From assembly GCA_965232615.1 (NCBI GenBank), contig OZ246985.1, forward strand, positions 847,778 through 911,777: DNA of 64,000 nucleotides, in the 5' to 3' direction. The number at the start of each line of letters is the position of its first letter. Within the stretch, counting starts at the first letter, position 1. This DNA is from Spirochaetaceae bacterium. Lineage in GTDB: Bacteria > Spirochaetota > Spirochaetia > DSM-2461. Below, in pieces: positions 1,469 to 63,900 of this stretch. Position numbers and translations under genes: made by a program. The notes beneath the pieces were generated by a model. The model was not told where the DNA came from. It saw only the letters and a list, made by a program, of their open reading frames with translations, and searched no databases.

Positions 1469-1588
1469 GGGCACCTCTAAAAAACCTTATTTCGTTTTTA
1501 GCTTGATCTTTTTCCTCGCTGCTACGTTGTCAAAATACTCAACTAAGCATGTGCGTCAATTTCCTAAAGCTGTTTTTTAGAGGTACCC
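1469..1588 (+). repeat. Minimal copy (E1) of the TIR-bounded MITE-like element: GGGCACCTCTAAAA end, 70-bp module A, cgtcaatttcctaaagctg, TTTTAGAGGTACCC end
   Basis: Inverted termini GGGCACCTCTAAAA/TTTTAGAGGTACCC. Module A (gatctttttcctcgctgctacgttgtcaaaatactcaactaagc) recurs in at least 8 other copies in the window. Confidence 0.85.
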
Positions 1589-1775
1589 TTGAGACAATCC
1601 CTGGGATAAGTGGGCACTGAATGTGCTCCGTAAGCCGAAAAAGCCTGATAACGGGTTGAAATCGCTAAGAAAGGTCGAAATTTACAGAAAAAAAATGAAA
1701 AAAGGACGTTATTCCCGAGTCAAAGGTTGCAAAACTATTTTTTTTGAGGTATCCATATATATAAGGAGGACCATA

Positions 1776-1862
1776 ATGAAGAAGAATTTATTTGAGTTGA
1801 TTAGTACGTCAGTATTTAAGACAAGCCGCATAGATGTGGTGAACACAAGGAGTCGTTCATGA
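1776..1862 (+). CDS. 28-codon upstream small ORF (MKKNLFELISTSVFKTSRIDVVNTRSRS) overlapping the start of the downstream lipoprotein gene
   Basis: Strong SD (ataaggagga) 7 nt before the ATG at 1776. Its stop TGA overlaps the ATG of the 1859 gene (tcATGA). Could be a leader peptide or translational-coupling ORF, or spurious. Confidence 0.25.
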   Translation: MKKNLFELISTSVFKTSRIDVVNTRSRS

Positions 1863-2707
1863 AGTTTGAGACCATAACAATTAGTATTCTGACCGCCCTC
1901 ATTCTGCTCGCCGGCTGTCCATCTGCCGATACAGTCGATATTGCAACAGTGCAGGGCTTCTCTATTTCCATTGGTGACCAAACTGTCACCGTCTCGCAAG
2001 CATCAACTTTCACCGTAACGATCAACAATGCCGATCTGACCGCAGGAACTGATTACGGCCTGAGCATAGAGAAAAAAGATGGAACCGCCGTAGAAGCCGT
2101 CACCATAGATAACAGCGGTCTAGTCTCTATAGCAGACACGATCGGCACAGACGATACCGGAACCTACACCGTTACAGCCGCCGGAACGGGCAAGTACACT
2201 GGAGAGACAACAGTCGATTTCGTACTGACGGTAGTGTACAACATAGGCGACACCGGCCCCGCCGGAGGGATAATCTTCTATGTGAATACTAATGCCGCCA
2301 GCGATGGATGGACTTACCTGGAGGCGGCCTCGCAGGATCACGATGTTACTGTTCCATGGGGTGCTGCTGTAACGGTTAACACGGGCACAGCCATAGGAAC
2401 CGGAGAATCCAACACAGCAATGATAGTGACCGCACTTGGTGATAACGGAGGAACGGCTTACGCGGCGAAAATCTGTAACGATTTAGTGCTGGACGGCTAT
2501 GATGACTGGTTTTTGCCGTCCAAGGATGAGTTGAATGAGTTGTATGAGCAGAAAGATTCAGTAGGAGTTTTCGCGTCTTATCACTACTGGTCCTCGTCGG
2601 AGTACAGTGCCAACGACGCGTGGGCTCAGTACTTCAACGATGGCTTCCAGTACAACAGCAGCAACGAGTACGACGGCATCCATGTCCGTGCGGTGAGGGC
2701 TTTTTAA
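1859..2707 (+). CDS. lipoprotein with Thr/Gly-rich repetitive N-terminal region and C-terminal DUF1566 (Lcl C-terminal-like) domain
   Basis: Signal peptide with lipobox LLAGC. The C-terminus DDWFLPSKDELNELY...YWSSSEY...VRAVRAF matches the DUF1566 signature (LPT/S..EL..L, YWSST, terminal VRxVR). Confidence 0.65.
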   Translation: MKFETITISILTALILLAGCPSADTVDIATVQGFSISIGDQTVTVSQASTFTVTINNADLTAGTDYGLSIEKKDGTAVEAVTIDNSGLVSIADTIGTDDTGTYTVTAAGTGKYTGETTVDFVLTVVYNIGDTGPAGGIIFYVNTNAASDGWTYLEAASQDHDVTVPWGAAVTVNTGTAIGTGESNTAMIVTALGDNGGTAYAAKICNDLVLDGYDDWFLPSKDELNELYEQKDSVGVFASYHYWSSSEYSANDAWAQYFNDGFQYNSSNEYDGIHVRAVRAF

Positions 2708-2787
2708 CTATTTGCCCATTTAACTATGGCATTCAGCGTTGGTTAGCCAACGCTGAATGCCGCATTTCTTACACAGCCTGAACTTAC

Positions 2788-3146
2788 GGGCACCTCTAAA
2801 ACCCCATTGAGTTCTTGACTCAGATCTTTTCCGCCGCTACTGCGTTGTCAAAATACTCAACTAAGCTTGAGTTTTTGCCTGCCTGTGCGTGTCCGCACGC
2901 AGACAGGCCGCCTTGCATCAAGAAAAAATTTAATCATGTGTGTACCGCTATCAGGTGTGTACCACTATCAGGTGTGTACCGCTATCAGGTGTGTACCGCT
3001 ATCAGGTGTGTACCGCTATCAGGTGTGTACCGCTATCAGGTGTGTACCGCAGGGCGTAGCCCGAGGAACACACCGCCACAGGGCGTAGCCCGAGGAACAC
3101 ACCGCCAGTGCGCCAAATTCTAAAAATGGTTTTTTAGAATTTGCCT
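2788..3146 (+). repeat. MITE-like element copy E2: GGGCACCTCTAAAA end, module A, palindromic module B, 7 x 16-bp units (gtgtaccgctatcagg), hairpin unit(s), ttttttagaatttgcc end
   Basis: Seen directly. Tandem 16-mers at about 2939-3051, then cagggcgtagcccgaggaacacaccgcca repeated twice. The right end supplies the stop codon of tsaE. The ORFs at 2815-3123 and 2867-3088 are translation artefacts of the repeats. Confidence 0.85.
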
Positions 3147-3631
3147 GAAGCATTGGTAACAGAGATTGATCTTTCACCATCTTTCATCATTTCAATATTG
3201 ACTTGTATCGTCCGATCCGGCAGTTCATTGATCACATGATCACCCCATTCGATAAGGCACACTCCAGACCCGTTAAGCATTTCCTCAATGCCAAGCCAAA
3301 AAAATTCTTCTACCGAATTCAATCGGTAGAGGTCCATGTGATAAAGCTTCATTGTACCACTGTATTCGTTGATCAGTATGAATGATGGACTGGTTACTGG
3401 TTCAATTACTCCAAGAGCTTCAGCGATCCCTTGAGCAAACACGGTTTTCCCGACTCCAAGGACACCTGACAGGGTGACTATATCTCCCGGAACAAGGTGT
3501 TTTCCGAACTGAAATCCTGCCTTTTTCGTTCCAGCAGTATCAAAGGTTTTAATCTCCATGACCTGAGTAGGCCGTCTTTTTCCATAATAAGGATTTTTTA
3601 GAGGTGCCCTTACGATAGTGAAGAGGAACAT
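3134..3631 (-). CDS. tsaE: tRNA threonylcarbamoyladenosine biosynthesis ATPase TsaE (YjeE)
   Basis: P-loop GVLGVGKT. Homology begins at MEIKTF, so the true start is probably the internal ATG at 3559. The annotated N-terminal extension reads through a solo TIR. The stop codon lies inside the E2 right terminus. Confidence 0.7.
   Translation of the reverse strand: MFLFTIVRAPLKNPYYGKRRPTQVMEIKTFDTAGTKKAGFQFGKHLVPGDIVTLSGVLGVGKTVFAQGIAEALGVIEPVTSPSFILINEYSGTMKLYHMDLYRLNSVEEFFWLGIEEMLNGSGVCLIEWGDHVINELPDRTIQVNIEMMKDGERSISVTNASGKF
3594..3609 (+). repeat. solo TIR (TTTTTTAGAGGTGCCC) of the MITE family
   Basis: Exact match to the element terminus, isolated between tsaE and parC. Confidence 0.5.
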
Positions 3632-3701
3632 CTTTCTTTACGAGTTGTTCCATACTTTGAACTAACATTGTGTTCAAGGATAGTAATCCATTGCACTCAG
3701 G

Positions 3702-5630
3702 TCAAGCGTTCTTTTCGAGCGCCTTGATACTGATAAATCGGGCGGATGTAAACTCCCTGGGTTTCAGCCGCACCCCTCTGGCCCTTACACCTTTTACAAG
3801 GTATTCACTCACGGGAAAGGCGTCAGCATTTTTAATGAGACTTTTCTGCTTAAAATCTACAACAGCAGCAACATCTTCCTTCGTAGTGAAGCGGATCATT
3901 TCACCTTCTTCCGGAATCAGTGAATATGATCGATTGAGGATGAACTGAGTTATCTGACAACGTTTGATGTAGGGGAAATTGTTCTCAGTATTTCTGTAAA
4001 TAAGGGAAAAGATCACGGAATCACAGGTGTCCTTATCGGCCAGATTCGCGTAGAGCATACCCTTGCCCACGAAAATCTTGTCCGGTACATCTGTTACCAG
4101 ATACGTACCATCTTTTTTTATGTAGATGACCCTGTCGTACACTGATGCGGAAAAAAGAATCCGACCGCCAGAGGTCTCATACCCCAGGTATCCTGTGTTC
4201 GGATTGTATTTCACTTTCAGATTCTTTTGGGCCACATCCCGGATATCCACTTTCTGCAGCGAAACAATCTCACTGTGTCTGGGATATTTCGACCGGTATT
4301 TCTCAACAATCCCGTCAAGGTAGCGGAGGGCACAGGCCACCAGATGAGTCAGATGATGATCAATTTCAGTGACCCTTTCCTGTAATTGCTGGATTTCATC
4401 CACCATCCGCTTGATGTCAAATTGACTTATACGCCTTATGGGTATTTTGAGAAGGCGTTCGATATCGTCATCACTGACTTCGCGTTCAATCTCCTTCTCA
4501 AATGCTTTAAATTCCCTGTGTACGGTTCGAAATATGCCCGATACGGTTTTAATTGGTTCAATTTGCTTGTAGATTTTCTCAACAATGAAGATTTTCTCCA
4601 GGTTTCGTGCATGAATTTTATCCAGCAAGTGACCTTTTTCGATGAGAAGTTCCTTCTCCAGCAGCTTGAGCAGTCTGTCAGCATGATACTGTATAACGTC
4701 AGGAACATTCATCACCGAGGGCTTATCTTCGTTGATAAGGAGCATGTTTACCGGGATGCTCACTTCACAATCGGTAAAGGCATACAGGGCATCCAGTACA
4801 TCCTCAGTATGCACTCCCCGGGACAGTCTTATTTCTATCTCAACAGACTCTGTGGTGTAATCATTGATGACTCCAACTTTGATCTTATTAGACCTGGCAG
4901 CACTCTCAATCGATGCGATGAGACTTTCTGTTGTAACCCCGTAGGGGAGCTGACGTATCACAATGCTTTTAGGATCGGATGAATCCAGTAGCGCTCTGCT
5001 GAGGATCTTTCCATTTCCTTCATTGTAATTCGTAACATCAATGATGCCCCCGGAAGGAATATCAGGATAAATTGTAAAATCTTCCCCTCTCAAACAGGCC
5101 TGCTCAGCTTCAATAACCTCAATGAGATTATGGGGTAGCAATCGTGTGGACATACCAACGGCAATTCCTTCAGCACCCAGAATTAAAGGTAGGGGAATCT
5201 TTGCTGGAAGAGTGACAGGTTCCTGTCTGCGTCCATCATAGGACTCGGTAAACAAAGTTATTTCCGGTCCGAAGAGCACCTCTTTGGCCATGGGCAATAG
5301 GCGACATTCAATGTACCGAGCTGCGGCAGCTGGATCTCCAGTGAAGGTATTGCCGAAATTTCCCTGCCTGTCGATGAAGAAATCCTTGTTGGCCAGGTTG
5401 ACCAGTGCCTCATAGATGGAGGCATCCCCGTGAGGGTGATACTGCATCGCATGACCAATAACATTGGCCACCTTGTGAAATTTCCCATCGTCAATATCAA
5501 ACAAAGACTGGAGAATCCGCCGCTGGACTGGCTTGAGACCATCTTCCAGATGGGGGATGGCCCTCTCTTTGATAACATACGAGGCATATTCAAGAAAATT
5601 TGTGTTAAAGATTTTACTTATATACGCCAT
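3702..5630 (-). CDS. parC: DNA topoisomerase IV subunit A (short GyrA/ParC-type, lacks the long C-terminal domain)
   Basis: 642 aa with a GyrA/ParC N-terminal catalytic core (AIPHLEDGLKPVQRRIL, YHPHGD). The size matches spirochaete ParC rather than GyrA. Confidence 0.75.
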   Translation of the reverse strand: MAYISKIFNTNFLEYASYVIKERAIPHLEDGLKPVQRRILQSLFDIDDGKFHKVANVIGHAMQYHPHGDASIYEALVNLANKDFFIDRQGNFGNTFTGDPAAAARYIECRLLPMAKEVLFGPEITLFTESYDGRRQEPVTLPAKIPLPLILGAEGIAVGMSTRLLPHNLIEVIEAEQACLRGEDFTIYPDIPSGGIIDVTNYNEGNGKILSRALLDSSDPKSIVIRQLPYGVTTESLIASIESAARSNKIKVGVINDYTTESVEIEIRLSRGVHTEDVLDALYAFTDCEVSIPVNMLLINEDKPSVMNVPDVIQYHADRLLKLLEKELLIEKGHLLDKIHARNLEKIFIVEKIYKQIEPIKTVSGIFRTVHREFKAFEKEIEREVSDDDIERLLKIPIRRISQFDIKRMVDEIQQLQERVTEIDHHLTHLVACALRYLDGIVEKYRSKYPRHSEIVSLQKVDIRDVAQKNLKVKYNPNTGYLGYETSGGRILFSASVYDRVIYIKKDGTYLVTDVPDKIFVGKGMLYANLADKDTCDSVIFSLIYRNTENNFPYIKRCQITQFILNRSYSLIPEEGEMIRFTTKEDVAAVVDFKQKSLIKNADAFPVSEYLVKGVRARGVRLKPREFTSARFISIKALEKNA

Positions 5631-7447
5631 TAAACCAGATTATCCATGATGTATTCACGCCGCTGAGGGGTATTTTTACCCATATAGAACGCAAGAGTCT
5701 CCGGCACGGTTTTCATCGATTTGATACCAATCGGCACAATGCGCATGTCCTCTCCAATAAACTGACCAAATTCCCCGGGGCTGATCTCTCCCAGTCCCTT
5801 GAATCTCGTCACTTCACGTCCCTTGATGGTTGTCATGGCGGAGTTCTTCTCTCTTTCGGAATAGCAATACTGTGTTTCCTTTTTATTTCGTACCCGGAAC
5901 AGCGGTGTCTCAAGGATGTAGATATGCCCGCCGATTACCAACTCCTCGAAGTAATTCAAAAAGAACGTCAGTATCAGATTCCGGATGTGAAATCCATCTG
6001 TATCGGCATCTGTGGCTATTACAACACGTTCGTAGCGCAGGTTGTCAATATCGTTCTCAATTCCAAGAGCCATCATCAGATTGAACAATTCTTCATTCCT
6101 GTAAATGGCTGTACGGCCTTTCCCGTAACTGTTCCAGGGCTTCCCCCGGAGAGAATAGACTGCTTGAGTGTGCACGTCTCTGCAACTGACAATTGAACCT
6201 GCAGCGGACATACCCTCTGTGATGAATATGGTGGTTTCATCACCACGCTTATCTCCCCGGTGATACTTGCAGTCTTTCAGTTTGGGAATGTTCAGAGATA
6301 TTTTTTTTGCCGCAGCTTTAGCTTCTTTTTTTACCGACGCAAGTTCCTTCCGGAGTTTCTCATTATTGACAATCTTCTCCTCAAGAATTCTGGCTGTTTC
6401 GGGGTTCTTATGCAGGTAGTCCACTACAGCTGCCTTGACCTCCCTGACAATCCATGCGCGCACCTCAGTATTTCCAAGCTTGTTTTTAGTCTGACTTTCA
6501 AATACGGGATCCTTCACCTTCACCGCAATGCAGCCGGCAATACCTTCCCGAACATCGGTACCGGAGTAGTTTTTTTTCGTGAATTCGTTCACTCCTTTGA
6601 GCAAGCCCTCCCGGAATGCACTGAGATGAGTTCCCCCATCGGCAGTAAACTGTCCGTTTACAAATGAGAAATGATTTTCTCCATAATTTGCCGTATGCGT
6701 AAAAGCTATCTCCAGTTTATCTCCAGTGTGATAAACTATGGGATAGAGAGCCGTATCACCAACTTCCTGATCCAATAAATCATGTAACCCCTTTTTTGAT
6801 TCAAATCTGGTACCGTTGTAATACAGACTTAGATTTCGGTTCAGACAGGCATACACCCACATGCGCCGTTCAATATACTCATCCATAAATTCATAGTCAG
6901 GAAATATATCCCTATCCGGTATGAACTCGGCGTAAGTACCATCAGCATATCCTTCACAGTTGCCCTTTCTTTCTTTATTGAGAACACCTTTCTCGAACAG
7001 AGCTTCCCTGAATTTCCCATCCCTGTAGGAACGAATGAGAAAAAAACTGGACAAGGCATTCACGGCCTTCGTTCCCACTCCATTGAGGCCCACTGAAAAC
7101 TGAAATACATCATCGTTATATTTTGCGCCTGTGTTGATAACACTCACACATTCAATGAGCTTGCCATGAGGGATCCCCCTGCCATAGTCGCGGCAGGCGA
7201 TCCTCCCGTTCTTGTGTTTGATTTCAATCTTCTTACCGAAGCCCATGATGTATTCATCAATGGCATTGTCCACTACTTCCTTGAGAAGGATGTAGATACC
7301 GTCCTCGGAATTTGAGCCATCACCAAGACGGCCAATATACATACCGGAACGAAGGCGAATATGTTCAAGAGAACTGATCGTTTTTATTTTACTTTCATCA
7401 TAGATCTGAGATGGAGGTGACATGCATCCTATCTTAAAGATTTTCAA
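5630..7447 (-). CDS. parE: DNA topoisomerase IV subunit B (GyrB/ParE family ATPase plus Toprim)
   Basis: 605 aa with GHKL ATPase and Toprim motifs (EGDSAAG-like MSAAGS, PLRGK-type SLRGK). Adjacent to and overlapping parC. Confidence 0.75.
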   Translation of the reverse strand: MKIFKIGCMSPPSQIYDESKIKTISSLEHIRLRSGMYIGRLGDGSNSEDGIYILLKEVVDNAIDEYIMGFGKKIEIKHKNGRIACRDYGRGIPHGKLIECVSVINTGAKYNDDVFQFSVGLNGVGTKAVNALSSFFLIRSYRDGKFREALFEKGVLNKERKGNCEGYADGTYAEFIPDRDIFPDYEFMDEYIERRMWVYACLNRNLSLYYNGTRFESKKGLHDLLDQEVGDTALYPIVYHTGDKLEIAFTHTANYGENHFSFVNGQFTADGGTHLSAFREGLLKGVNEFTKKNYSGTDVREGIAGCIAVKVKDPVFESQTKNKLGNTEVRAWIVREVKAAVVDYLHKNPETARILEEKIVNNEKLRKELASVKKEAKAAAKKISLNIPKLKDCKYHRGDKRGDETTIFITEGMSAAGSIVSCRDVHTQAVYSLRGKPWNSYGKGRTAIYRNEELFNLMMALGIENDIDNLRYERVVIATDADTDGFHIRNLILTFFLNYFEELVIGGHIYILETPLFRVRNKKETQYCYSEREKNSAMTTIKGREVTRFKGLGEISPGEFGQFIGEDMRIVPIGIKSMKTVPETLAFYMGKNTPQRREYIMDNLV

Positions 7448-7518
7448 TCGACAGTAAAGACCAGGGATGACTCAGATGGAAAACAAACCTGAAGTGCCAG
7501 TGTTATGGCTGTCTCCCA

Positions 7519-12275: not shown

Positions 12276-13940
12276 ATGAGTAGGATCTATATTTCCGGAC
12301 ATAGAAATCCCGACTTCGACTCAATAGCTTCGGCTTATGTATACGCCCATTTGAAGAATAGAGTGGATCCGAACAACAGCTACATTCCTGTTCGCTGTGG
12401 TAATATCAACGCCCAGACCAGGTCAGTTTTTACAAAATTGGGCATTGAACCACCGCAGTATATGAAGGATGTAAGGGCAAAAGTTGCCGATGTGGTGGAT
12501 AGAGATGTACCTCGTCTTGAATTAAAAGACCCTCTACAATCGGCCATAGGAGTACTTGATGAAACAGGAGTGAGTCTGCTGCCGGTCTTTGATGAGGATG
12601 GCAGCTACCAGGGCATTGTCAGCAGTGTTGAAGTGAGCCATTTTCTTATGAGAGAAACTTTTGGTGCCAGACCTGCATACCATTTCCGCATCGATAATCT
12701 TGCCAAGGTGGTACCAGGTTGTATGATGCATAAGGGAATAGCAGAAGATTTCACAGTTCCCATTATGATTGGAGCCATGCCTTTTGAACGAAGCGTTGAG
12801 TGTATAACAGCTTTGAATACAAATCAGGCATTGCTTATTGTCGGTATGCGCCGTGATCTTGTTGATTATGCCATAAGTAATGACTTTCCGGCCGTCATAC
12901 TCACAGGTGCTACCAGGGAGGAAGTTGCGAAGCTTGATTTGTCCCGGTATACGGGTTCTGTTTATCTCTCCGATGTTGATACAGCGGAGACAGTCCGGCT
13001 TTTGCGTTTCAGCACCCCTCTGGAGAAAATTATTGAAACTGATATAGAACTTCTTGAAGCCAGTACAAGTTTTGATCAGGCAAAGTCAATTCTATCCTCA
13101 TCGGGCCTGAGGGGATTACCAGTCTTCGATAATGGGCAATTTGTGGGCATTGTGTCTCGAGGTTCTTTCCTCAATAGGCCCCGGAATAAACTAATCCTGG
13201 TCGATCACAATGAACTGGATCAAAGTATACCTGGAGCCAGGGATGCTGACATCCTTGAGATTATCGATCATCATCGTGTTGGGTCAATCATGTCTCGAAA
13301 CCCCTTCAGTCTGTATACTCGACCTGTGGGCTGTACCTGCACCATCCTCCGTCAATTATACAGACAACACGGTGTGGCCATATCGACAGAAATCGCCCTC
13401 CTTATGCTTTCTGCAATCCTTTCGGATACGGTATTACTCAAATCTCCCACCACCACGGATGAGGACAGACAGACCGCAGAAGGCCTTGCCCGTCATGCCG
13501 ATGTTGACTGGACGGTATGGGGTCAGGAGATTTTCGCTTCAGGTGCCCGCCTGGCAGAAATTGAACCCATGAATGCTATCAATGAAGATTTCAAAATTTA
13601 CGAATCAGGTTCAATTCGTTTCGGTATTGGTCAGGTGGAAGTTCAAACTCTGTCAGGGTTGGAGGATGTCTCCGAAAGTCTGCAGAAGGCCCTCACCCGA
13701 ACGAAGGAATCTCAGACTCTGGATGGTGTAATGCTCCTTATCACCGATATAATGAAGGAAGACAGTGTCCTTTTAACCAGGGGTTTGAATAAAGTTGTCC
13801 GTTCTCTTCCTTATGAGGTGATGCCTGACGGTATCCTCAGCCTTCCCGGTATTCTTTCCCGGAAAAAGCAGCTTCTCCCTGAGATAATTCGAGCTGTTGA
13901 AGAAACCAGGGTCTCTCTGGAGGATGAAGGGCACCTCTAA
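12276..13940 (+). CDS. DHH-CBS-DHHA2 protein, putative CBS-domain-containing manganese-dependent inorganic pyrophosphatase
   Basis: N-terminal DHH (GHRNPDFDSIASA), a central CBS pair and a C-terminal DHHA2. The stop codon (GGG CAC CTC TAA) is supplied by the left TIR of repeat E4. Confidence 0.6.
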   Translation: MSRIYISGHRNPDFDSIASAYVYAHLKNRVDPNNSYIPVRCGNINAQTRSVFTKLGIEPPQYMKDVRAKVADVVDRDVPRLELKDPLQSAIGVLDETGVSLLPVFDEDGSYQGIVSSVEVSHFLMRETFGARPAYHFRIDNLAKVVPGCMMHKGIAEDFTVPIMIGAMPFERSVECITALNTNQALLIVGMRRDLVDYAISNDFPAVILTGATREEVAKLDLSRYTGSVYLSDVDTAETVRLLRFSTPLEKIIETDIELLEASTSFDQAKSILSSSGLRGLPVFDNGQFVGIVSRGSFLNRPRNKLILVDHNELDQSIPGARDADILEIIDHHRVGSIMSRNPFSLYTRPVGCTCTILRQLYRQHGVAISTEIALLMLSAILSDTVLLKSPTTTDEDRQTAEGLARHADVDWTVWGQEIFASGARLAEIEPMNAINEDFKIYESGSIRFGIGQVEVQTLSGLEDVSESLQKALTRTKESQTLDGVMLLITDIMKEDSVLLTRGLNKVVRSLPYEVMPDGILSLPGILSRKKQLLPEIIRAVEETRVSLEDEGHL

Positions 13941-14158
13941 AAAACCCATTGAGTTCTTGACTCGACCTGCCTGCCTGTGCGTGTCCGCACGCAGACAGGC
14001 CGCCTTGCATCAAGAGAAAATTTAAGCAGAGGTGCGTACCGCAGGAGCAAAGCTCCGAGGAACGCACCGCCACTATCAGGTGCGTACCGCAGGAGCAAAG
14101 CTCCGAGGAACACACCGCCATTTCGTCAATTTCCTGAAGCTGTTTTTTAGAGGTACCC
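13929..14158 (+). repeat. MITE-like element copy E4 (TIR, variant-A module, module B, two 41-nt hairpin units of the gcgt/ggagc type, TIR)
   Basis: Hairpin units at 14031-14071 and 14079-14119 (ggtgcgtaccgcaggagcaaagctccgaggaacgcaccgcc). The ORF at 13837-14121 is an artefact. Confidence 0.85.
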
Positions 14159-16685: not shown

Positions 16686-16716
16686 GGGCACCTCTAAAAA
16701 CCTTATTTCGTTTCTG
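16686..16716 (+). repeat. truncated left end of the MITE-like element (E5)
   Basis: gggcacctctaaaaaccttatttcgtttctggc matches the variant-B left end, then homology stops. Confidence 0.55.
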
Positions 16717-22532: not shown

Positions 22533-22546
22533 TTTTAGAGGTGCCC
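22533..22546 (+). repeat. solo TIR TTTTAGAGGTGCCC immediately upstream of the acyl-CoA synthetase start
   Basis: Exact terminus sequence. Confidence 0.45.
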
Positions 22547-22678: not shown

Positions 22679-22711
22679 GGGCAGCTCTAAAAAACAGCTT
22701 TAGAGGTGCCC
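22679..22711 (+). repeat. 33-bp mini-palindrome formed by fused left and right TIRs (gggcagctctaaaaaacagctttagaggtgccc)
   Basis: Both termini present with no internal modules. Confidence 0.55.
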
Positions 22712-22935: not shown

Positions 22936-23005
22936 TTACAGACTTTCTGACACGATGAAATTACTACCAATTTCCTGATATCTGCCAGACTTACGCCTCC
23001 CGGCT

Positions 23006-23098
23006 CGATTTTTGCCCTTTTTCCTGCTAATGCGTTGCCAAATACTCACATAGCCCAGCTACACTCCGTTTTTTGCCTTGCATCAGGATGAAATCATT
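23006..23098 (+). repeat. degenerate copy of MITE modules A and B
   Basis: gatttttgccctttttcctgctaatgcgttgccaaatactcacatagcccagctacac...ttgccttgcatcaggatgaaatcatt aligns at about 75% with the modules of E7 and E11. Confidence 0.4.
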
Positions 23099-23211
23099 AA
23101 TAATCGCCTTAAAGTCTTAAAGCCCGACAGATCCCGTGGAAAAAGTGATAATAAATACTCAGAAATCAATAAAACACTGCCTGGGGATCGTCTTGGGAAT
23201 CAAAGAGGTGA

Positions 23212-44359: not shown

Positions 44360-44503
44360 AACAGAATTACAATAGAAAGATGACAGGTTAAAGTCAAGCA
44401 GGTTTTCAATCAGGGCAATCGCATCTAATTCTATCCCAAAGGGGAATTCCAGGAGTCTGTCGGACTCCTGGAATCCTTCACGGGAGACCAGAAAGTTATT
44501 ATA

Positions 44504-44723
44504 GGCAACCTCTAAAAAACAGCTTTAGGAAATTGACGCATTGGCGGTGTGTTCCTCGGGTTACGCTCTGCGGTACACACCTGGTAGCGGTACACACCGG
44601 ATTAAATTTTTGTCGATACAAGGCAGGCAAAATCTAAGGGCGTAGCTGGGCTTAGTTGAGTATTTTGACAACGCAGTAGCGGCGGAAAAGACCTGAGTCA
44701 AGAACTCAATGGGTTTTTTAGAC
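44504..44723 (-). repeat. MITE-like element copy E7 (minus orientation), private terminus variant ttttttagactgaag
   Basis: Starts ggcaacctctaaaaaacagctttaggaaattgacg and contains rc hairpin units, module B and module A. Shares its odd left-TIR variant with E8. Confidence 0.8.
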
Positions 44724-44936
44724 TGAAGTTTTAAGGGAATTTCGGTCTAAATACTTATATAGAAAGAAGTTGAGCTAGTTTTGCCCTCAAAACGCCCCCA
44801 TGTAATATTGCAATTTTATTATATTATTGTATTGACAATTATGTAGATATAATTCATAATGCACCCATGTATATTCAAATAGTACCAAACAGAAATTCGC
44901 CTCCCTGCATTCTGCTGCGGGAAGACCACCGAGAGA

Positions 44937-45911
44937 ATGGCCGCGTTATCAAAAAGACTCTGGCTAATTATAACCAAACTGCCAGGTCATGCCGTTGAAG
45001 GCCTTCGACGGTTGCTTAAAGAAGGACCAGAAGCCCTATCTGGAAATGATTTCAAAATCACTCGAACTCTACCGCATGGTCATGCCGTTGCCATCCTCAA
45101 GGTTATGAAAGATCTTGATATTCCTCGGTTAATTTCCTCCCGCCGAACTCCCGAACGTAATTTGATTATCGCCCTTATTGCCCAACGTATTCTTCATCCA
45201 CAATCGAAACTGGCCACTTTTTAAGAGGGGCAAGCTACAAATTGAAGTGGGTCTTCTTTGTGACTCAGAAGGACGTCCTGTGGGGGTTGAAGTCTTTGAA
45301 GGCAACACAGCCGATCCGATGACGGTTTCCAGCCAGATTGAAAAACTCCGAAATCGCTTCGGTCTTGAACGGATCACAGTGGTCGGTGACCGAGGAATGC
45401 TAACTGAAGCGAGCATTGACAGGGAAATCCGGAAGAACTCTCTGACGAAAAGGTTGTATTTGCGTACAAACGGCTCTCCAGCGTTGAACAGGCATTTCGC
45501 TACATAAAGTTGGTGGACTTGAAGCTACGGCCCGTTTATCACCGCCTGGAGGACAGGGTTCGGGCGCATGTATTGGTTTGTATGCTTGCCTACTATGTTG
45601 AATGGGAAATGCGGAAACGGATGGCTCCCATTCTCTTTGAAGATGAAGCTTCTGCCATTGAAAGGGAGAAGAAAAAGAAATCCATCGTTTCTCCTGCGGA
45701 AAAATCTGGTAAAGCCCTGGCGAAAGCATCAACAAAACAAACAGACGATGGAGAACTCGTCCATAGTTTCCGAACGGCGTTAAATTGTCTTGCGACTATT
45801 TGCCAAAACACAATTGAATTCGATTGTAAAGAATCCGCATCCTTCACGCGGATTACAGAACCAGTAAACCATCAAAGAGTAATCCTGAATCTTTTGGGGG
45901 TCAGTATGTAG
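44937..45911 (+). mobile_element. degraded IS1634-family (IS4 superfamily) transposase pseudogene, C-terminal part in 3 frames
   Basis: The fragment ...RVRAHVLVCMLAYYVEWEMRK... is a hallmark of IS1634-type transposases. The frame is broken at least twice and the N-terminus is missing. The insert has inverted ends agactgaagtttt(a/t)a. Confidence 0.6.
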
Positions 45912-45994
45912 TCGCCAGGTCCCCAGTATCGTAACATTGGGGAATTGGCTAAATGCTTTCTCTGTATGGAAATATGGTGGTCTTGCGATAAAAA

Positions 45995-46384
45995 CTTCAG
46001 TCTAAAAACCTCATTGTGTTCTTGACTCGATCTTTTCTGCCGCTACTGCGTTTTCAAAATGCTCACGTAATCAGGTGTGTACCGCAGGGCGTAGCCCGAG
46101 GAACACACCGCCACTATCAGGTGTGTACCGCAGGGCGTAGCCCGAGGAACACACCGCCACTATCAGGTGTGTACCGCAGGGCGTAGCCCGAGGAACACAC
46201 CGCCACTATCAGGTGTGTACCGCAGGGCGTAGCCCGAGGAACACACCGCCACTATCAGGTGCGTACCGCAGGAGCAAAGCTCCGAGGAACACACCGCCAC
46301 TATCAGGTGTGTACCGCAGGGCGTAGCCCGAGGAACACACCGCTACTGCGCCAAATTCCAAAAACGATTTTTTAGAGGTTGCCT
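45995..46384 (+). repeat. MITE-like element copy E8 with six tandem 46-bp hairpin units
   Basis: Left end cttcagtctaaaaacc is the exact inverse of the E7 end. Units ctatcaggtgtgtaccgcagggcgtagcccgaggaacacaccgcca x6, one of them the gcgt/ggagc variant. The ORF at 46209-46442 is an artefact. Confidence 0.8.
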
Positions 46385-48880: not shown

Positions 48881-48891
48881 AAATATCTCCT

Positions 48892-49050
48892 GGGCACCTC
48901 TAAAAACCTTATTTCGTTTTTGGCTTGATCTTTTTCCTCGCTGCTACGTTGTCAAAATGCTCACGTAATCAGGTGCGTACCGCATGAGCAAAGCTCCGAG
49001 GAACGCACCGCCACTTCGTCAATTTCCTAAAGCTGTTTTTAGAGGTACCC
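48892..49050 (+). repeat. MITE-like element copy E9 (one hairpin unit)
   Basis: Full TIRs. Variant-B module A, one gcgt/ggagc-type hairpin and the cgtcaatttcctaaagctg end. Confidence 0.85.
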
Positions 49051-54792: not shown

Positions 54793-54799
54793 GTTTCTT

Positions 54800-58134: not shown

Positions 58135-59313
58135 ACGTCTTTTAAGAAGAAGGCCGGGATATGATGCGGCTAGAGTGATGGGACCATACAGTGCCCAGAA
58201 TGCACTGACATCTTGATAAACCTCACCGCTCAGTCGCAAATAAATGGATGAAATCAGTCCGATTGCATTGATTGTCCAAATCCAGGCTATAACAGATTCC
58301 TGGTATTTCCACCTTGAAGCAAAGAGGGGTATCGTGCATAAGAGGACTGTGGGTAGGGTTGACCAGAAATTGATGTTTCCATAGCCGGCATTATGATTGG
58401 TGAAGAACATAAAAAAACCGATCGTTGCTCCTGGCAAGCCAACGATTAACACAATGGGCAGCTGTATGAGCCCCCCCCATTTCAAATTTGAGGCCTGGAA
58501 CCAGACGATTGACATGAACAAACTTAAGCACAATAACAACGGCCATAGTTTCGTGGGTTTATCAGGTACTGGTGGACGAATTGCTTTTTTGAGAATTGTT
58601 TTTTCATCGGACAATGTTCGGATTACTCCATCCCGACCTGTATATTCCAGTTTTGTTGCATAGTCTGCGACTGCATAAGGCAGGAACATCAATTCCCATC
58701 CATTGATGGTTTTATCGGTATAAGGACCAAGTAGATAATGAAGCATAATCTCTGCTGGTAATGATTGATAAGACATAGTTCGTGCATAAAATCGGAAGCT
58801 TTTGTCTTTGAGAGAGAGCGTTTGATTTTTCAGTTGATTGTCAAGAACTTCGTTCAGTATATCCCGTATGATTGTCGAACAGTTATTTGTGAAGTAATTA
58901 TAGAGATATACCCGGTTTTCCGGTAATACCCACCATCGAAGTTTTTTATCAAGTATTTCCAGTTCTTCATTACCCAGATTGAGGTTATACATTGTTAAAT
59001 CCATGTTATTCAGCATGGATTGGGCAATGAATCTGTCCGTCGGTGAAACAACGGCCAGGTACGGCATGTATCCTTTCATGAAGTCTTCGTAAAAATTTTC
59101 CGAATAAAAGGAAAAATTTCCAAAGTCATAGAATAAATCTTCACCTGTATCGTTATTCTTCAATGCTAATCCTATGTGTCCCCAATAGGTGTATAGAAGA
59201 TCGCCAGGCCCGGCAATTATCATTCTTGCACTTATATTTCCTGCCCATCCTGAGGTGATGGAGAATCCCAGTAGAACAGCTGAAAGCATTATTCGTACAT
59301 GTTTTTTCATCAA
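58123..59313 (-). CDS. DUF4105-like (Lnb N-terminal) membrane protein
   Basis: Signal peptide, an N-terminal domain (YWGHIGLALKNNDTGE) and several C-terminal TM helices. Confidence 0.45.
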   Translation of the reverse strand: MMKKHVRIMLSAVLLGFSITSGWAGNISARMIIAGPGDLLYTYWGHIGLALKNNDTGEDLFYDFGNFSFYSENFYEDFMKGYMPYLAVVSPTDRFIAQSMLNNMDLTMYNLNLGNEELEILDKKLRWWVLPENRVYLYNYFTNNCSTIIRDILNEVLDNQLKNQTLSLKDKSFRFYARTMSYQSLPAEIMLHYLLGPYTDKTINGWELMFLPYAVADYATKLEYTGRDGVIRTLSDEKTILKKAIRPPVPDKPTKLWPLLLCLSLFMSIVWFQASNLKWGGLIQLPIVLIVGLPGATIGFFMFFTNHNAGYGNINFWSTLPTVLLCTIPLFASRWKYQESVIAWIWTINAIGLISSIYLRLSGEVYQDVSAFWALYGPITLAASYPGLLLKRRLGW

Positions 59314-59418
59314 TCATCCTGAATTTCAATAAAGTTAGTTCAATTCCAGTACAATAAGGAGGACATAATCAACTATAGCAAGTATACTATAATCAAATAC
59401 ACAATAAAAGGAGTCATT

Positions 59419-59604
59419 ATGGCTGAAAATGAAAATCTGGTTGTTGCTTCCAAGGTAAAGGCTTATATCAAAACGACAGCTGATATGAAGTGTTCTGCAA
59501 CCGTCATAGACGCACTCTCCAATGCCGTTCGTGAAATGTGTGACAAAGCGATTGACAATGCAAAAAGTGCAAGACGGAAAACTGTTCAGGACAAAGATTT
59601 CTAA
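59419..59604 (+). CDS. small basic histone-fold-like protein (DUF1931-like)
   Basis: Strong SD (aaaaggag) 7 nt upstream. 61 aa (ASKVKAYIKTTADMKCSATVIDALSNAVREMCDKAIDNAKSARRKTV). Followed by a hairpin. Confidence 0.45.
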   Translation: MAENENLVVASKVKAYIKTTADMKCSATVIDALSNAVREMCDKAIDNAKSARRKTVQDKDF

Positions 59605-59708
59605 TTTACGGTACCTCCTCTGGAAACTTGTTTTCGGAATCTGATGAGATGAAGTATTCAAGACGAAACTGAAATGAATACTTCCTGGGGTAACCATCAT
59701 TCGATAAT

Positions 59709-59739
59709 CCGGGATTGGAAAGCAGTCCCGGATTGTTTT
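59709..59739 (+). terminator. candidate intrinsic terminator after the small protein gene
   Basis: ccggga-ttggaaagcag-tcccgg followed by attgtttt. Confidence 0.35.
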
Positions 59740-59762
59740 CCAATATAATACCATACTTGAGC

Positions 59763-60220
59763 TCTATCTTAAGGCAACCTCTAAAAACCGTTTTTGGAAT
59801 TTGGTGCAGTGACGGTGCGTTCCTCGGAGCTTTGCTCCTGCGGTACGCACCTGCTTAAATTTTTTCTTGATGCAAGGCGGTAAAAGCGGAGCTAGCCTGA
59901 GCGGTTGGCGGTGCGTTCCTCGGAGCTTTGCTCCTGCGGTACGCACCTGTTTAAATTTTTTCTTGATGCAAGGCGGTAAAAGCGGAGCTAGCCTGAGCGG
60001 TTGGCGGTGCGTTCCTCGGAGCTTTGCTCCTGCGGTACGCACCTGTTTAAATTTTTTCTTGATGCAAGGCGGTAAAAGCGGAGCTAGCCTGAGCGGTTGG
60101 CGGTGCGTTCCTCGGAGCTTTGCTCCTGCGGTACGCACCTGTTTACGTGAACATTTTGACAACGTAGCAGGGAGGAAAAAGATCAAGCCAAAAACGAAAT
60201 AAGGTTTTTTAGAGGTGCCC
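59763..60220 (-). repeat. MITE-like element copy E10 (minus orientation) with 4 x about 96-bp tandem units (hairpin plus module B)
   Basis: Unit ggcggtgcgttcctcggagctttgctcctgcggtacgcacctgtttaaattttttcttgatgcaaggcggtaaaagcggagctagcctgagcggtt. The ORFs at 59764-60258 and 59867-60202 are artefacts. Confidence 0.85.
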
Positions 60221-60337
60221 TTATAGATGACCTCACAAGATCGCGCAGTTTCATTCATGATTAGTTTTCCATTTTCACCGATTCCAAATGGGGGAGATTC
60301 CTGTGGATATTAGTGTTAAGGCACCGAATCTGTTTTC

Positions 60338-60901
60338 TTATTCCCACTTCAAAGAGATTCTGATCCGAATAAGTGCAATTTCCTGTCGCAGGTTTTCAGG
60401 CAGATCCATTTCTGAAAGACGATCAAGAATTTTGTTTCGCTCTTCATCTTTCCCTGAGTCTCTGAAACTATAGTTCAATGCAAAAAGTGTTCTATAATCA
60501 CCTGGATTGATACGCATGGATTTCTGAAGGAAGGCAAGTCCTTCTTCATGAGATCCCTCCATACTCTTCAGTATTCCCAGATTACGGAAAGCTGAAAAAT
60601 TTTCAGGTTTCATTTCAATTGCCTTCATCAGACTTTTTCGAGCTTGTTCCAGATTCCCAGTTCTCAGCTGAGCACAACCCATGGCTTCCCAGGCATAGGT
60701 ATTTGTTTCATCATTCTTAATATAGAATTCTAATGCTTTAATAGCTTTGTGATTTTCCCCAGTTTCAGTATATGCAATCCCAATATCGCATATTGCCCGT
60801 AAATCATCAGGGTATTCGGAGATTATTTCTGAAAGGATTGCTTTGGCCGATTGAAAGGCTCCTTCCCTCATCAGGTGTTCAGCGTGTTCAAGTGTGGGCA
60901 T
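60338..60901 (-). CDS. TPR-repeat protein
   Basis: 187 aa with at least 4 TPR-like helices (AWEAMGCAQLRTGNLEQARKSLMKAIE...). Confidence 0.6.
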   Translation of the reverse strand: MPTLEHAEHLMREGAFQSAKAILSEIISEYPDDLRAICDIGIAYTETGENHKAIKALEFYIKNDETNTYAWEAMGCAQLRTGNLEQARKSLMKAIEMKPENFSAFRNLGILKSMEGSHEEGLAFLQKSMRINPGDYRTLFALNYSFRDSGKDEERNKILDRLSEMDLPENLRQEIALIRIRISLKWE

Positions 60902-61505
60902 GTCTCCTCCTGATTCAATATCGGTTAGAGGTAGCTCATCATAAAATCAATTCTCAGTGTCAGAAAGCCTATAAAATCTCCTTCAAGCCATTCCAGAATT
61001 TCAATTCCCCCCTGGACCATCATATATAACGGAGCATAACGATCAGATCCCACCTCCGGATTTCGCCACTCGTACACCAGGTTTATTCTCATCCACACAT
61101 GGATTGACCTTGCTAGACTGAGTGTATGCCCCATTCATATCTGGAAAGAGCAAATTATATATAACTCGTTCTGCCAATGGTTTCCAGTATTCTGTGTATC
61201 GAAAACCAGTTTTTTGCTTCTGGGCACTGAAATTGATATATCTCGGGTTGGAGCAGTGAGGGAATGACAAAGTAAATCTCCTGATAAATTGTTTTCTTAC
61301 TACGCTATAACGAGTTTGATATGGGTTTTGATTTCGCTAACAAGCTTTCTGGCTCTGATATTTTCATAATAAGTTGAGGAAGATTGGATTTCTGGATATG
61401 ACGTATTCCCAGGTTAGACGAATCGGACAAAATCAGGATATCAGTCGTCAATGTGAGTGATTAAAAGACAGATAGTGGATGTATCGCTCATTCAAGCATA
61501 ATTAA

Positions 61506-61756
61506 GGGCACCTCTAAAAAACAGCTTTCAAAAATTGACGAAATGGCGGTGTGTTCCTCAGGCTATGCCCTGCGGTACACACCTGTTAGTGGCGGTATGT
61601 TCCTCAGGCTACGCCCTGTGGTACACACCTGGTTAAATTTTTGTCGATACAAGGCGGCAGAAGCTCAAGCGTAGCTGGGCTTAGATGAGTATTTTGACAA
61701 TGCAGTAGCGGCGGAAAAGATCGAGTCAAGAACTAAAGGGGTTTTTAGAGGTGCCC
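61506..61756 (-). repeat. MITE-like element copy E11 (minus orientation), perfect TIRs, two degenerate hairpin units
   Basis: GGGCACCTCTAAAA...TTTTAGAGGTGCCC, flanked by TTAA on both sides. Confidence 0.85.
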
Positions 61757-61845
61757 TTAAGTCAATTCAGTTTCGAGCAGATTTCAATATATGAAGCAAT
61801 TTGAATAGTTGACCCAGGATGCCGTTGAGTATAGGATAAGCTGTA

Positions 61846-61918
61846 CGGAATGTAGCCCAGCGGCCAGGGCACCTGCTTTGGGAGCAGGAGATCGGAGGTT
61901 CGAGTCCTCTCATTCCGA
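61846..61918 (+). tRNA. tRNA-Pro (anticodon TGG)
   Basis: Manual fold. Acceptor cggaatg/cattccg, D-stem gccc/gggc, anticodon stem cctgc/gcagg with loop ttTGGga, T-arm ggagg-ttcgagt-cctct and discriminator A. 73 nt, no encoded CCA. Confidence 0.75.
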
Positions 61919-61928
61919 GTAATGAACT

Positions 61929-63248
61929 TTAGTTTGTCAATGCTGCTGCCGCAGCTCCAATCAGTGGGGCATCGTTAACCCGTACTGTTTCATAGTACTT
62001 ATTCTTATTTGAGAGGTAGGGTCGGAGATAGCTTTCCACCCGCTGCTGAAACCTGTAATACCAATAATACGTTGTTCCATCGATAGTGAGACAATTTGCT
62101 TCCAGTGGACCACTTCCGCTGGGTCCTTTCAGGATGGATGCTGCTATGTTTGCTGCTGATAGTTTTGCGGCACGCTCCAGCAGGGCATCAAAAAGAAACC
62201 ACAACCGTTGCCGGTCGGATTCATTGGCATGAGTTTTCATTACTCTGGCAATAGCATTGTCCCTGGTATCTGCAGGATTATGGCAGTAATTATCAGCATC
62301 TTTTGTTGAAAACATACCGAGTTCAGTCAGTGAATGAACAGTTCTGGGAGAGAATAGTCCTTTACTGCCAGCGAGCATTGCACTTTGAGTTGCAAGAGCT
62401 CCAAAGTAGCCACCAGATAGCATTTTTTCCAGCAGATATGCATTGGCATCAGATGTTATTCTACCCAGCATTAAATCGGCTTCACCCCTGTTTGGGTATG
62501 CGTAATTTCCAGTTTCACAATTTATAATCTGCTTCCCGGAAGGGTTAAGATCAGGGACTTTCCCTATGGCGGAGTTTGATTCCACATAGCAGGTATTGGT
62601 TCCTGTTCCAAGGATGAATCCTGCGTATCCTCCCCAGGGGCGGGTTGGATTGGAGAGTTTACCGGTCAGTAGAGTCGCTACGGCATCATTAAGAATAACA
62701 ATATCTGGTACATCCTGTATTCCTCTGTTGCGGAGAGCATCTTTGAAATCTGAGCCAATCATACGACCAACAACATCAGGAGCTTTTATTTCTTTTGACC
62801 AATGAAGCAGTCGACCATCCCTGTCTGGAAATATTTCTGTTGGATAGGAAAAACAGAATCCTATGCCTGAATCCCGTGAGATGAGAGGTTCTACCAATGC
62901 TGCTAGAGTATCAAAGAATTCCTCCCTGCCCACTGTGGAATCCCTGGAACCAGGCATGGGATGCTTTGAATAATTGTCGATAACTGGTTTCTTCCCATCT
63001 TTGAATGTTACAAGTGCTACACGCAGGTTCGTTCCACCAGCATCCAGAACTACGGTTGGTTTTTCCATGGGAATATCGGTATCAGTTTCAATATATGTGG
63101 GGAGCATTTTCAGAGAGGATGGTTGTCCATTGAGACCAAGAGTCATCTCTTCCAGCATATGGTCAACAGTGTTCTCCATATTCACCATATCAGGATGCAT
63201 ATGGACTTCCAGGAGAAATTTTTCGACAGTGTTTCTATGTTTATTCAT
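61929..63248 (-). CDS. hexokinase (eukaryote-type hexokinase family, as found in some spirochaetes)
   Basis: 439 aa. Hexokinase_1-like N-terminus (LKMLPTYIE..., VVLDAGGTNLRVALV) and C-terminal lobe. Confidence 0.55.
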   Translation of the reverse strand: MNKHRNTVEKFLLEVHMHPDMVNMENTVDHMLEEMTLGLNGQPSSLKMLPTYIETDTDIPMEKPTVVLDAGGTNLRVALVTFKDGKKPVIDNYSKHPMPGSRDSTVGREEFFDTLAALVEPLISRDSGIGFCFSYPTEIFPDRDGRLLHWSKEIKAPDVVGRMIGSDFKDALRNRGIQDVPDIVILNDAVATLLTGKLSNPTRPWGGYAGFILGTGTNTCYVESNSAIGKVPDLNPSGKQIINCETGNYAYPNRGEADLMLGRITSDANAYLLEKMLSGGYFGALATQSAMLAGSKGLFSPRTVHSLTELGMFSTKDADNYCHNPADTRDNAIARVMKTHANESDRQRLWFLFDALLERAAKLSAANIAASILKGPSGSGPLEANCLTIDGTTYYWYYRFQQRVESYLRPYLSNKNKYYETVRVNDAPLIGAAAAALTN

Positions 63249-63352
63249 CTTTTCAGTATGACCATCGAACGCTGTGAATGCAAGCTGAATCCAGCATTAC
63301 AATGGTAAAATTCTATCTGATTAAATCTCTAACTCAGGAGATTCTCATTCAA

Positions 63353-63900
63353 GGGTACCTCTAAAAAACAGCTTTAGGAAATTGACGAAATGGCGGTGTG
63401 TTCCTCGGAGCTTTGCTCCTGCGGTACGCACCTGCTTAAATTTTTTGTCGATACAGGGTGGCAAAAGCTCAAGCGTAGCCTAAGCGGTTGGCGGTGCGTT
63501 CCTCGGAGCTTTGCTCCTGCGGTACGCACCTGCTTAAATTTTTGTCGATACAGGGTGGCAAAAGTTCAAGCGTAGCCTAAGCGGTTGGCGGTGCGTTCCT
63601 CGGAGCTTTGCTCCTGCGGTACGCACCTGCTTAAATTTTTGTCGATACAGGGTGGCAAAAGTTCAAGCGTAGCCTAAGCGGTTGGCGGTGCGTTCCTCGG
63701 AGCTTTGCTCCTGCGGTACGCACCTGCTTAAATTTTTGTCGATACAGGGTGGCAAAAGTTCAAGCGTAGCCTAAGCGGTTGGCGGTGCGTTCCTCGGAGC
63801 TTTGCTCCTGCGGTACGCACCTGCTTACGTGAGCATTTTGACAACGCAGTAGCGGCAGAAAAGATCGAGTCAAGAACTAAATGGGTTTTTAGAGGTGCCC
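63353..63900 (-). repeat. MITE-like element copy E12 (minus orientation) with 5 x about 118-bp tandem units
   Basis: Unit ggcggtgcgttcctcggagctttgctcctgcggtacgcacctgcttaaatttttgtcgatacagggtggcaaaagttcaagcgtagcctaagcggtt. The ORF at 63390-63575 is an artefact. Confidence 0.85.

Follow-up and report, generated by a model that had tools for sequence, protein, structure and literature searches.

Repeat elements of the window

The DNA analysed here, referred to throughout as the window, is a 64-kb stretch of contig OZ246985.1 from a Spirochaetaceae bacterium. It is ordinary chromosome, with parC/parE-type topoisomerase genes, metK, tsaE, ribonucleotide reductase, recO, recJ, hexokinase and one tRNA-Pro, and its ParC-like protein has its best named matches in uncultured Spirochaetaceae and Spirochaetales. 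Scattered among these genes are copies of a short, non-coding repeat, and nearly all of the repeated DNA revealed by a self-BLAST of the window belongs to its loci. [quoted passage not shown]

The repeat is delimited by the terminus GGGCACCTCTAAAA, which is found at 17 sites in the window (both strands, with no more than one mismatch) where 0.03 are expected from shuffled sequence, and no shuffle of the window reaches this number. There are ten copies with two ends and three solo ends, at a density of about one copy per 5–6 kb; the copies range in size from 33 to 548 bp, and together this family (family 1) accounts for approximately 4% of the window. A first-pass annotation had proposed a series of elements with common inverted termini, every one of which is present at the site it gave, and its coordinates mostly stand, with the exception of the copy placed at 59763, which is better begun at 59772. 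Most copies do have the common termini, but the element at 23006–23098 does not; it has the core of a second family, described below, and its termini relate to GGAGYCTGTCGGACT. The statement that all copies are intergenic is nearly right, except that those at 13929 and 2788 supply the ends of genes, a DHH-family gene and tsaE, respectively.

Dissection of the copies recovers all of the parts that had been described at first pass: the conserved module A in the left arm, the palindrome called module B, the right subterminus in its two forms and the hairpins. Oriented left to right, a copy consists of a left arm, a core, an optional palindrome, an A-rich tail, hairpins and a right arm. The left arm has two subtypes, ...AAACCTTATTTCGTTTTTRGCTTGATC and ...AAACCCATTGAGTTCTTGACTC, listed as type 1 or type 2 in Table 1; the core is about 85 bp long and contains GCGTTGTCAAAATRCTCA; the optional palindrome (module B) is 32 bp and GC-rich; and the A-rich tail is CGCCTTGYATCRASAAAAAATTTAA. 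Between zero and six hairpin units follow, and the right arm is either alpha (CGTCAATTTCCTAAAGCTGTTTTTTAGAGGTRCCC) or beta (GCGCCAAATTCYAAAAAYGRTTTTTTAGAGGTTGCCT). All four combinations of left-arm and right-arm subtypes are present, and recombination between copies has therefore taken place.

The hairpin unit is 36–38 nt long, with a folding energy between −21.8 and −24.5 kcal/mol (z = −3.6 to −5.2); the minimal copy at 1469 also folds as a whole, into a long terminal-repeat hairpin (z = −5.2). There are two hairpin sites, both with TAAGCA, one inside the core and the other after the A-rich tail. Tandem Repeats Finder confirms the variable tandem arrays, reporting periods and copy numbers of 17 x 6.9, 29 x 2.0, 46 x 6.0, 46 x 1.9, 96 x 3.5 and 97 x 4.5, with 92–100% of positions matching (99% for the 96-bp array of copy 59772). 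The 96–97 bp unit is made of one hairpin plus the stretch between the two TAAGCA sites, the very product expected if two hairpins of a single element underwent unequal exchange, and because the units within an array are 95–100% alike the array expansions are recent. Hairpin units occur in the window and in three contigs of the ENA metagenome assembly ERZ25084522 (L001, L002 and L003) only, and always inside elements bounded by terminal inverted repeats.

The copies have no recognisable coding capacity, as had been claimed, since the open reading frames (ORFs) that run through the arrays contain no Pfam domain above cutoff. The tRNA-Pro is the only Rfam match in the window that reaches threshold, with no known RNA family within the copies, and there are no matches at E <= 1 in the 59.7–64.0 kb region that holds three of them. 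Scans for consensus promoters and terminators found none inside the copies scanned, and the arrays do not qualify as CRISPR arrays, with units that lie head-to-tail without unique spacers. At 13929, insertion removed the final nine codons of the DHH-family gene and an in-frame TAA of the terminus became the new stop; the last codons and stop of tsaE are likewise supplied by the right end of copy 2788. The family thus rewrites gene ends, occupies 5′ leaders and the spacers of operons, and marks points of deletion and rearrangement relative to a sister genome, and it deserves masking and annotation in uncultured Spirochaetaceae genomes such as that of the host.

Empty sites in a sister genome and the IS5-type terminus

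The sister is a circular 3.0-Mb genome in ENA (ERZ25073285 ctg8249), with about 92% DNA identity to the host and 95% and 94% amino-acid identity in ParC and RecJ, respectively. Two of its stretches, L123 and L125 (44 kb), align to window positions 157–15377 and 47820–63352 in blocks of 90–94% DNA identity; no intact family-1 terminus is present in these 44 kb, and the breaks in the alignment coincide exactly with element ends. The site of copy 13929–14158 is empty in the sister, which reads ...gaagaTGAAgacaaactc... with a single TGAA, compared with ...gaggaTGAA[element]TGAAgacaaactc... in the window, and the site of copy 63353–63900 is also empty, with a single TCAA compared with TCAA[element]TCAA. 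The copy at 61506–61756 is absent from the orthologous position, in a less tidy context, and for copy 1469 the left junction is exact and the right flank is non-homologous. At 3596–3609 a solo terminus replaces 164 bp of sister sequence, which indicates a deletion beside a former copy. The sister does contain one decayed family-1 copy (L123, ∼15510–15690), and the family is therefore older than the split between the two genomes. Synteny with the sister ends at window position ∼47800 (L125 ∼6350), by a Fic-domain gene and the IS1634/MITE composite described below, a configuration consistent with repeat-mediated rearrangement.

The terminus is not peculiar to this lineage. One genome per species was scanned for the 17-mer GGGCACCTCTAAAAAMC, giving at least 119 stretches, and the matches listed, to which the following counts refer, come from Spirochaetota, Campylobacterota, Nitrospirota, Nitrospinota, Bacteroidota, Clostridia, and Alpha-, Beta- and Gammaproteobacteria. 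Five of the elements bounded by the terminus (14–17 bp) are 1208–1320 bp long (L018, L094, L057, L020 and L088). The ORFs of L018 and L057 encode 342 and 346 amino acids and score 259 and 264 bits with the NCBIfam IS5-family transposase model NF033581 (cutoff 140 bits); by tblastn, related transposase genes, 35–76% identical, are present in at least nine loci besides these two, and the other three elements have homologues matched in this way. The five elements sit in phyla other than the host's. Short elements of 33–290 bp with the same termini are present in about 60 loci from many phyla, and the terminus GGGCACCTCTAAAAACC defines a lineage of the IS5 group that has given off many MITEs and extends over at least seven phyla. 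The first-pass annotation had named a match of the termini to a known repeat family as grounds against novelty, and this has come about in part, since the termini are those of a widespread lineage and not private to this genome. The repeat itself appears to have no published name: a full-text search for the terminus sequence returned only an unrelated plant primer, and no spirochaete element appears in a 2024 review of prokaryotic MITEs (PMC10969869).

Target duplications point in the same direction. A perfect 4-bp direct repeat flanks 38 of the 78 pairs of termini in the window and all listed loci, with TTAA the commonest and 23 of the 38 fitting T..A; those in the window are TGAA (copy 13929), TTAA (61506) and TCAA (63353). 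Target duplications of 4 bp are characteristic of the IS5 group. Other genomes contain elements of only 33–65 bp made up of two termini (L010, L060, L062 and L106), and as target duplications flank some of these, among them elements of 50–65 bp with little besides the termini, the termini appear to be sufficient for movement. When the five full-length elements were compared with all loci by BLASTN, only the terminal repeat was found in common, which rules out the MITEs as internal-deletion derivatives (type I) of the full-length IS5-group elements sampled; if the parentage holds, the window repeats would be ‘type II’ MITEs, having the termini alone in common with the IS. The first-pass proposal of a recently mobile, non-autonomous element is well borne out, with terminal repeats near-identical to those of transposase-encoding IS, 4-bp duplications, small multicopy units without coding sequence or a known RNA family, and presence or absence at precise sites relative to the sister.

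The mechanism we favour is one in which an IS5-group enzyme would recognise only the 15–17 bp terminal inverted repeat, GGGCACCTCTAAAAA(C)C, excise the element, and paste it into AT-rich sites, mostly TNNA, with a 4-bp stagger giving rise to the 4-bp duplication; such a transposase presumably acted in the host. The interior is non-coding cargo, comprising the ∼85-bp core, the optional GC-rich palindrome and the 36–38 nt hairpins, and wherever two hairpins came to lie in one element, slippage or unequal recombination would have expanded and contracted the arrays of 17, 46 and 96–97 bp. The family, already in existence before the sister split, multiplied in the host lineage afterwards, and an IS1634-family element has since specialised on the TCTAAA of the MITE terminus.

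Several observations weigh against this account. No IS5-group transposase gene was found in the window by tblastn, nor in about 100 kb of DNA from close relatives, and the parentage rests on a terminal repeat of 15–17 bp. Six copies have clean GGG(C/T)ACC sequence at both termini, and three of them (1469, 22679 and 48892) are without a duplication; copy 59772, which has one beta terminus, has a flank match of only 3 bp. The beta right end has a terminus of variant sequence, AGGCAACC, that the IS5-type enzyme is only presumed to recognise, and the proposed change of the arrays by slippage derives from the identity of their units, not from a comparison of orthologous copies.

Table 1. Elements of both MITE families and the associated insertion sequence in the window, with second-family elements of related genomes.
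Feature	Position	Strand	Remarks
Minimal complete copy, 120 bp	1469..1588	+	Left arm type 1, core 5′ half, right arm alpha; no target duplication
Complete copy, 359 bp	2788..3146	+	Left arm type 2, core, GC-rich palindrome, beta right end
Solo terminus, remnant of a copy	3596..3609	-	In place of 164 bp kept in sister
230-bp copy	13929..14158	+	Two hairpin units, palindrome, 4-bp duplication TGAA
Truncated left end, 31 bp	16686..16716	+	Immediately 3′ of ribonucleotide reductase stop codon
Solo terminus	22533..22546	-	12 bp upstream of acyl-CoA synthetase-like gene start
33-bp mini-element	22679..22711	.	Two terminal repeats and nothing else
Degraded second-family element	22985..23140	+	Core as in family 1; termini relate to GGAGYCTGTCGGACT
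Solo palindromic second-family terminus, GGAGTCTGTCGGACTCC	44452..44468	.	
220-bp copy	44504..44723	-	Left terminus cut after TCTAAA by IS1634-family element
Decayed IS1634-family insertion sequence	44724..45994	+	Frameshifts, internal deletion; ends CTGAAGTTTTAAGGG... and ...GCGATAAAAACTTCAG
390-bp copy	45995..46384	+	46-bp hairpin unit x 6, beta right end; left terminus cut by IS1634-family element
159-bp copy	48892..49050	+	One hairpin; 11 bp upstream of gene start, divergent intergenic region
449-bp copy	59772..60220	-	Four hairpin units in 96-bp tandem repeat; between co-directional genes
251-bp copy	61506..61756	-	Two hairpin units, duplication TTAA; adjoins tRNA-Pro
Largest copy, 548 bp	63353..63900	-	Five hairpin units, 97-bp tandem repeat, duplication TCAA; upstream of hexokinase gene
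Second-family elements	L123 1003-1165, 1168-1351, 15208-15262; L125 5962-6123, 7464-7627, 13090-13253; L127 2670-2830		

Some individual copies call for comment. The interior of copy 2788 contains the 17-bp repeat (6.9 copies), one hairpin and the 29-bp repeat (two copies), and its beta right end is degenerate and overlaps the tsaE stop codon. The left terminus of this copy and the solo right terminus at 3609 lie 822 bp apart with tsaE between them, and both are flanked by TTAC; the match is probably fortuitous, given that the left flank is part of a paralogous gene-end block found in L001 and L003 as well. Paralogous genes for Lcl_C-domain (DUF1566) surface proteins are located at 1859–2790 in the window, 7952–8811 in L001 and 3160–4036 in L003, each with a common 3′ hairpin (gcattcagcgttgg...ccaacgctgaatgc) followed by a MITE copy, and the gene and the MITE copy seem to have been duplicated together. 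The sister orthologue of the window gene is not alignable.

A common interior, its hairpins, and an insertion sequence in the terminus

The 44 kb of sister sequence contain six elements of a second family, 55–184 bp long and with termini GGAGYCTGTCGGACT; four of the five that are full-length have 2-bp duplications (CA, CA, AT and TT), and the orthologous window positions are empty (e.g. 54529). This family is represented in the window only by the relics at 22985–23140, within which the first-pass element 23006–23098 falls, and 44452–44468. The spacer occupied by window copy 48892 contains, in the sister, a second-family element at a distance of about 40 bp. The second family is also present in L127, from a more distant relative (RecJ 76% identical). 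Alignment of the two families shows that the ∼85-bp core and much of the right arm are common to both, with differences in the outer 20–40 bp at each end. Other spirochaete genomes (L005, L048, L062, L066 and L085) also contain the core attached to family-1 ends; the core is found more loosely in one Bacteroidota genome (L027, L036 and L041). We read these relationships as the replacement of termini on a common interior, for example through nesting and a later loss of the inner pair of ends, and there may be selection for the core. Each of the two sister genomes, at ∼92% identity, has an expansion of a different MITE family on the same interior, and this reciprocity constitutes a clean natural experiment; a literature search for MITE families with the same interior but different termini found none.

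Two main variants of the hairpin differ by paired changes, from T-A to C-G in the outer stem and from GGGC/GCCC to GGAGC/GCUCC in the inner stem, and mixed units with a C/A mismatch also exist. These paired changes hint only weakly at selection for the fold, the independent events being few. RNAalifold returned no consensus structure in the core, and a hand-specified central helix of 6 bp has two compensatory pairs, all contributed by one clade.

JGI metagenome contigs were scanned with a strict hairpin pattern, and no hairpin-bearing MITE was found among them. The single match is a 23S rRNA fragment, Ga0207797_1052162 (L126, positions 143–186; 1160 bits with the Rfam large-subunit rRNA model), in which a 42-nt insertion occupies a hairpin loop in the 5′ domain of the bacterial 23S rRNA. 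Outside the apical stem-loop 34 of about 36 positions agree between the rRNA insertion and the MITE hairpin, in the outer stem as well as the internal loop; we estimate the number of matches to the pattern alone expected by chance at about 0.02–0.09 for a collection of ∼10^12 bases, and lower when the extra matching bases are counted. The hairpin could be a small module that inserts into MITEs and rRNA loops alike, or it could be a captured rRNA fragment. The presence of the core and most of the arms in two families with unrelated termini and duplications of different length (4 bp and 2 bp), expanded reciprocally in the two sister genomes, suggests a cargo that swaps its ends for those of an available transposase, or one that is kept for doing something for the host. 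Such a reading, with an interior that is more than passive filler and a hairpin that is either an insertion module in its own right or captured rRNA, strikes us as improbable.

The 1271 bp between the inverted copies 44504–44723 and 45995–46384 had escaped notice at first pass, as had the second family, and translate, with frameshifts and a deletion, as an IS1634-family transposase. Its closest homologues are proteins of 576 and 428 amino acids encoded in ERZ25084522, each 98% identical over the aligned part, and the intact 576-residue protein (P0002) scores 317 bits with the NCBIfam IS1634 model NF033559 (cutoff 100). In L001, L002 and L003, which come from that assembly, the IS carries ends of its own (CTGAAGTTTT... 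and ...AAAACTTCAG) and lies within one MITE terminus, with junctions of the form GGGCACCTCTAAA[IS]TCTAAAAACCC and a GGGCACC stub left on the other side; the 6-bp duplication TCTAAA is perfect in L003 and one base off in L001 and L002. The insertion point is the TCTAAA of the terminus in all four sets of junctions, those of L001, L002, L003 and the window, and the IS is found in either orientation and at either MITE end. Copies 44504 and 45995 lack the outer 7 bases of the left terminus owing to this insertion, and since the flanks of the window IS derive from two different MITE copies, the arrangement fits recombination between two copies of the IS.

Two further features lie apart from both families. 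The motif AGTGTCAGAAAGCYTGT occurs seven times in the window (at 9766, 18200, 22938, 47825, 60956, 61340 and 63912; 0.29 expected) and forms inverted pairs around ∼230–400 bp (e.g. 60956..61356, and L123 15270–15500), and in this it resembles a terminal repeat, belonging perhaps to a third family of small mobile elements in the clade. Direct repeats of ∼146–190 bp that are 90–93% identical (30653–30842 and 37772–37917) flank a 7-kb block with a G+C content of 0.50–0.54, compared with 0.41–0.48 around it, and this block may be an inserted island.

Alternative readings and known systems

Being the only transposase-related sequence in the window, and situated exactly between two inverted copies, the IS1634-family element at 44724–45994 is a candidate for the autonomous parent, with the repeats as its freed long terminal arms. 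The junctions in L001–L003 rule out this role for the remnant, because there the IS has its own ends and its 6-bp TCTAAA duplication inside a single MITE terminus; the MITE duplications are 4 bp and not 6 bp, and the MITE termini match those of IS5-group elements. We consider such a parentage to have next to no probability, and the IS instead targets the MITE terminus. A second DDE gene in L001 (3865–5370) was also considered as parent and rejected, as its flanks are without the family-1 terminus. Scarcely more credible is a reading of the repeats as palindromic units akin to repetitive extragenic palindromic (REP) sequences or bacterial interspersed mosaic elements (BIMEs) and spread by a transposase of the REP-associated tyrosine (RAYT) type (Y1 HUH), or as non-transposing structural repeats kept by the host. 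The mosaic, modular make-up, the stable GC-rich hairpins and the high intergenic density would all suit this explanation, as would the targeting of the repeat by an IS, a behaviour that several IS show towards REP and that is described for ISPpu9 (PMC12288879). The long terminal inverted repeats, the 4-bp duplications, the precise empty sites and a terminus in common with DDE-type IS5 elements do not suit it, and no hairpin lies outside elements bounded by terminal inverted repeats in the window or in L001–L003. Pfam scans of 20 of the larger ORFs together with the IS5 tblastn search brought to light no transposase besides the decayed IS1634 element, no search specific for RAYT having been made.

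A different question, compatible with an IS5-group MITE origin, is whether the copies have been domesticated, such that the transcribed core and hairpins affect neighbouring genes, for example as a stabiliser of mRNA, a target for RNase, a protein-binding site or a regulator in the 5′ untranslated region, with the hairpin kept by selection. Eight of nine full copies tabulated read left to right with respect to the flanking gene that would transcribe through them, and several are situated between co-directional genes or within bases of start or stop codons, but the orientation count is small and partly ambiguous. The paired changes in both stems of the hairpin variants and the two compensatory pairs in the small central hairpin of the core would agree with domestication, as would the retention of the core with two sets of termini and, loosely, in a Bacteroidota genome. 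Set against these, RNAalifold finds no consensus structure in the core, the compensatory changes represent very few events with one clade supplying all of those in the core helix, the hairpin variants are copied as blocks within arrays that include the mixed C/A units, and the copies lack consensus promoters, terminators and Rfam matches. Domestication is therefore possible but doubtful, and any influence of the copies on the expression of their neighbours would be an addition to, and not a substitute for, their spread as IS5-group MITEs.

Among known elements the IS5 group itself provides the first comparison: the window copies encode nothing, whereas the related IS of 1.2–1.3 kb encode transposases of 342–346 amino acids. 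Thousands of Escherichia and Klebsiella plasmid records contain weaker transposase matches (<60% identity), which we take to be IS5-type copies. The terminus of IS5 is GGAAGGTGCGAA... and its target is YTAR, compared with a loose TNNA here, of which TTAA is the commonest. Correia elements of Neisseria, enterobacterial repetitive intergenic consensus (ERIC) sequences and the pneumococcal BOX elements are also high-density, intergenic and non-coding and fold into long hairpins on transcription, but they have no sequence similarity to the window repeats and are not linked to the IS5-group terminus. Correia elements have 26-bp terminal repeats and a TA duplication, and BOX elements, which are modular with a variable number of boxB units, have neither terminal inverted repeats nor duplications. 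According to the review cited above, Correia elements can affect how nearby genes are expressed (PMC10969869).

The IS1634-family element also has counterparts, although a limited literature search found no published member of that family targeting a MITE terminus. IS1397 and ISKpn1 are insertion sequences that target REP/BIME. ISPpu9 likewise inserts into REP (PMC12288879), and the IS1634-family element here strikes one fixed position of the repeat. The present IS differs in its target, a MITE terminal repeat and not a REP hairpin, in belonging to the IS1634 family rather than IS3 or IS110, and in leaving an ordinary duplication of 6 bp.

Of published elements, BrickBuilt and MITEPgRS (MITE464) of Porphyromonas gingivalis come closest (Klein et al. 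2015; PMC4596501). Both are non-coding and intergenic, have short terminal repeats matching IS5-family elements, and contain a tandem array of variable length (23-nt or 41-nt units) framed by a leader and a tail; there are many partial copies with no transposase remnant inside, and BrickBuilt is present in 19 copies per genome (PMC4596501). The idea of an expandable array put forward at first pass is upheld by the near-identical tandem units in the window, but in these two elements it has a precedent. The differences are that the BrickBuilt terminal repeat, GAGACCTTTGCA (that of ISPg1 and ISPg9), is unrelated to GGGCACCTCTAAAA, that its duplications vary in length where those here are 4 bp, that a stable hairpin underlies the arrays here, which come in three periods, that the density here is about one copy per 5–6 kb against the 19 copies per genome of BrickBuilt, and that the hosts belong to different phyla. 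The window repeats are thus of a kind already known and leave the accepted view of how MITEs work unchanged; what they add is a well-supported instance of a bacterial MITE in which termini have been swapped and a minisatellite has grown, and the exchange of termini, the hairpin minisatellites and the terminus-specialised IS are details that merit recording.

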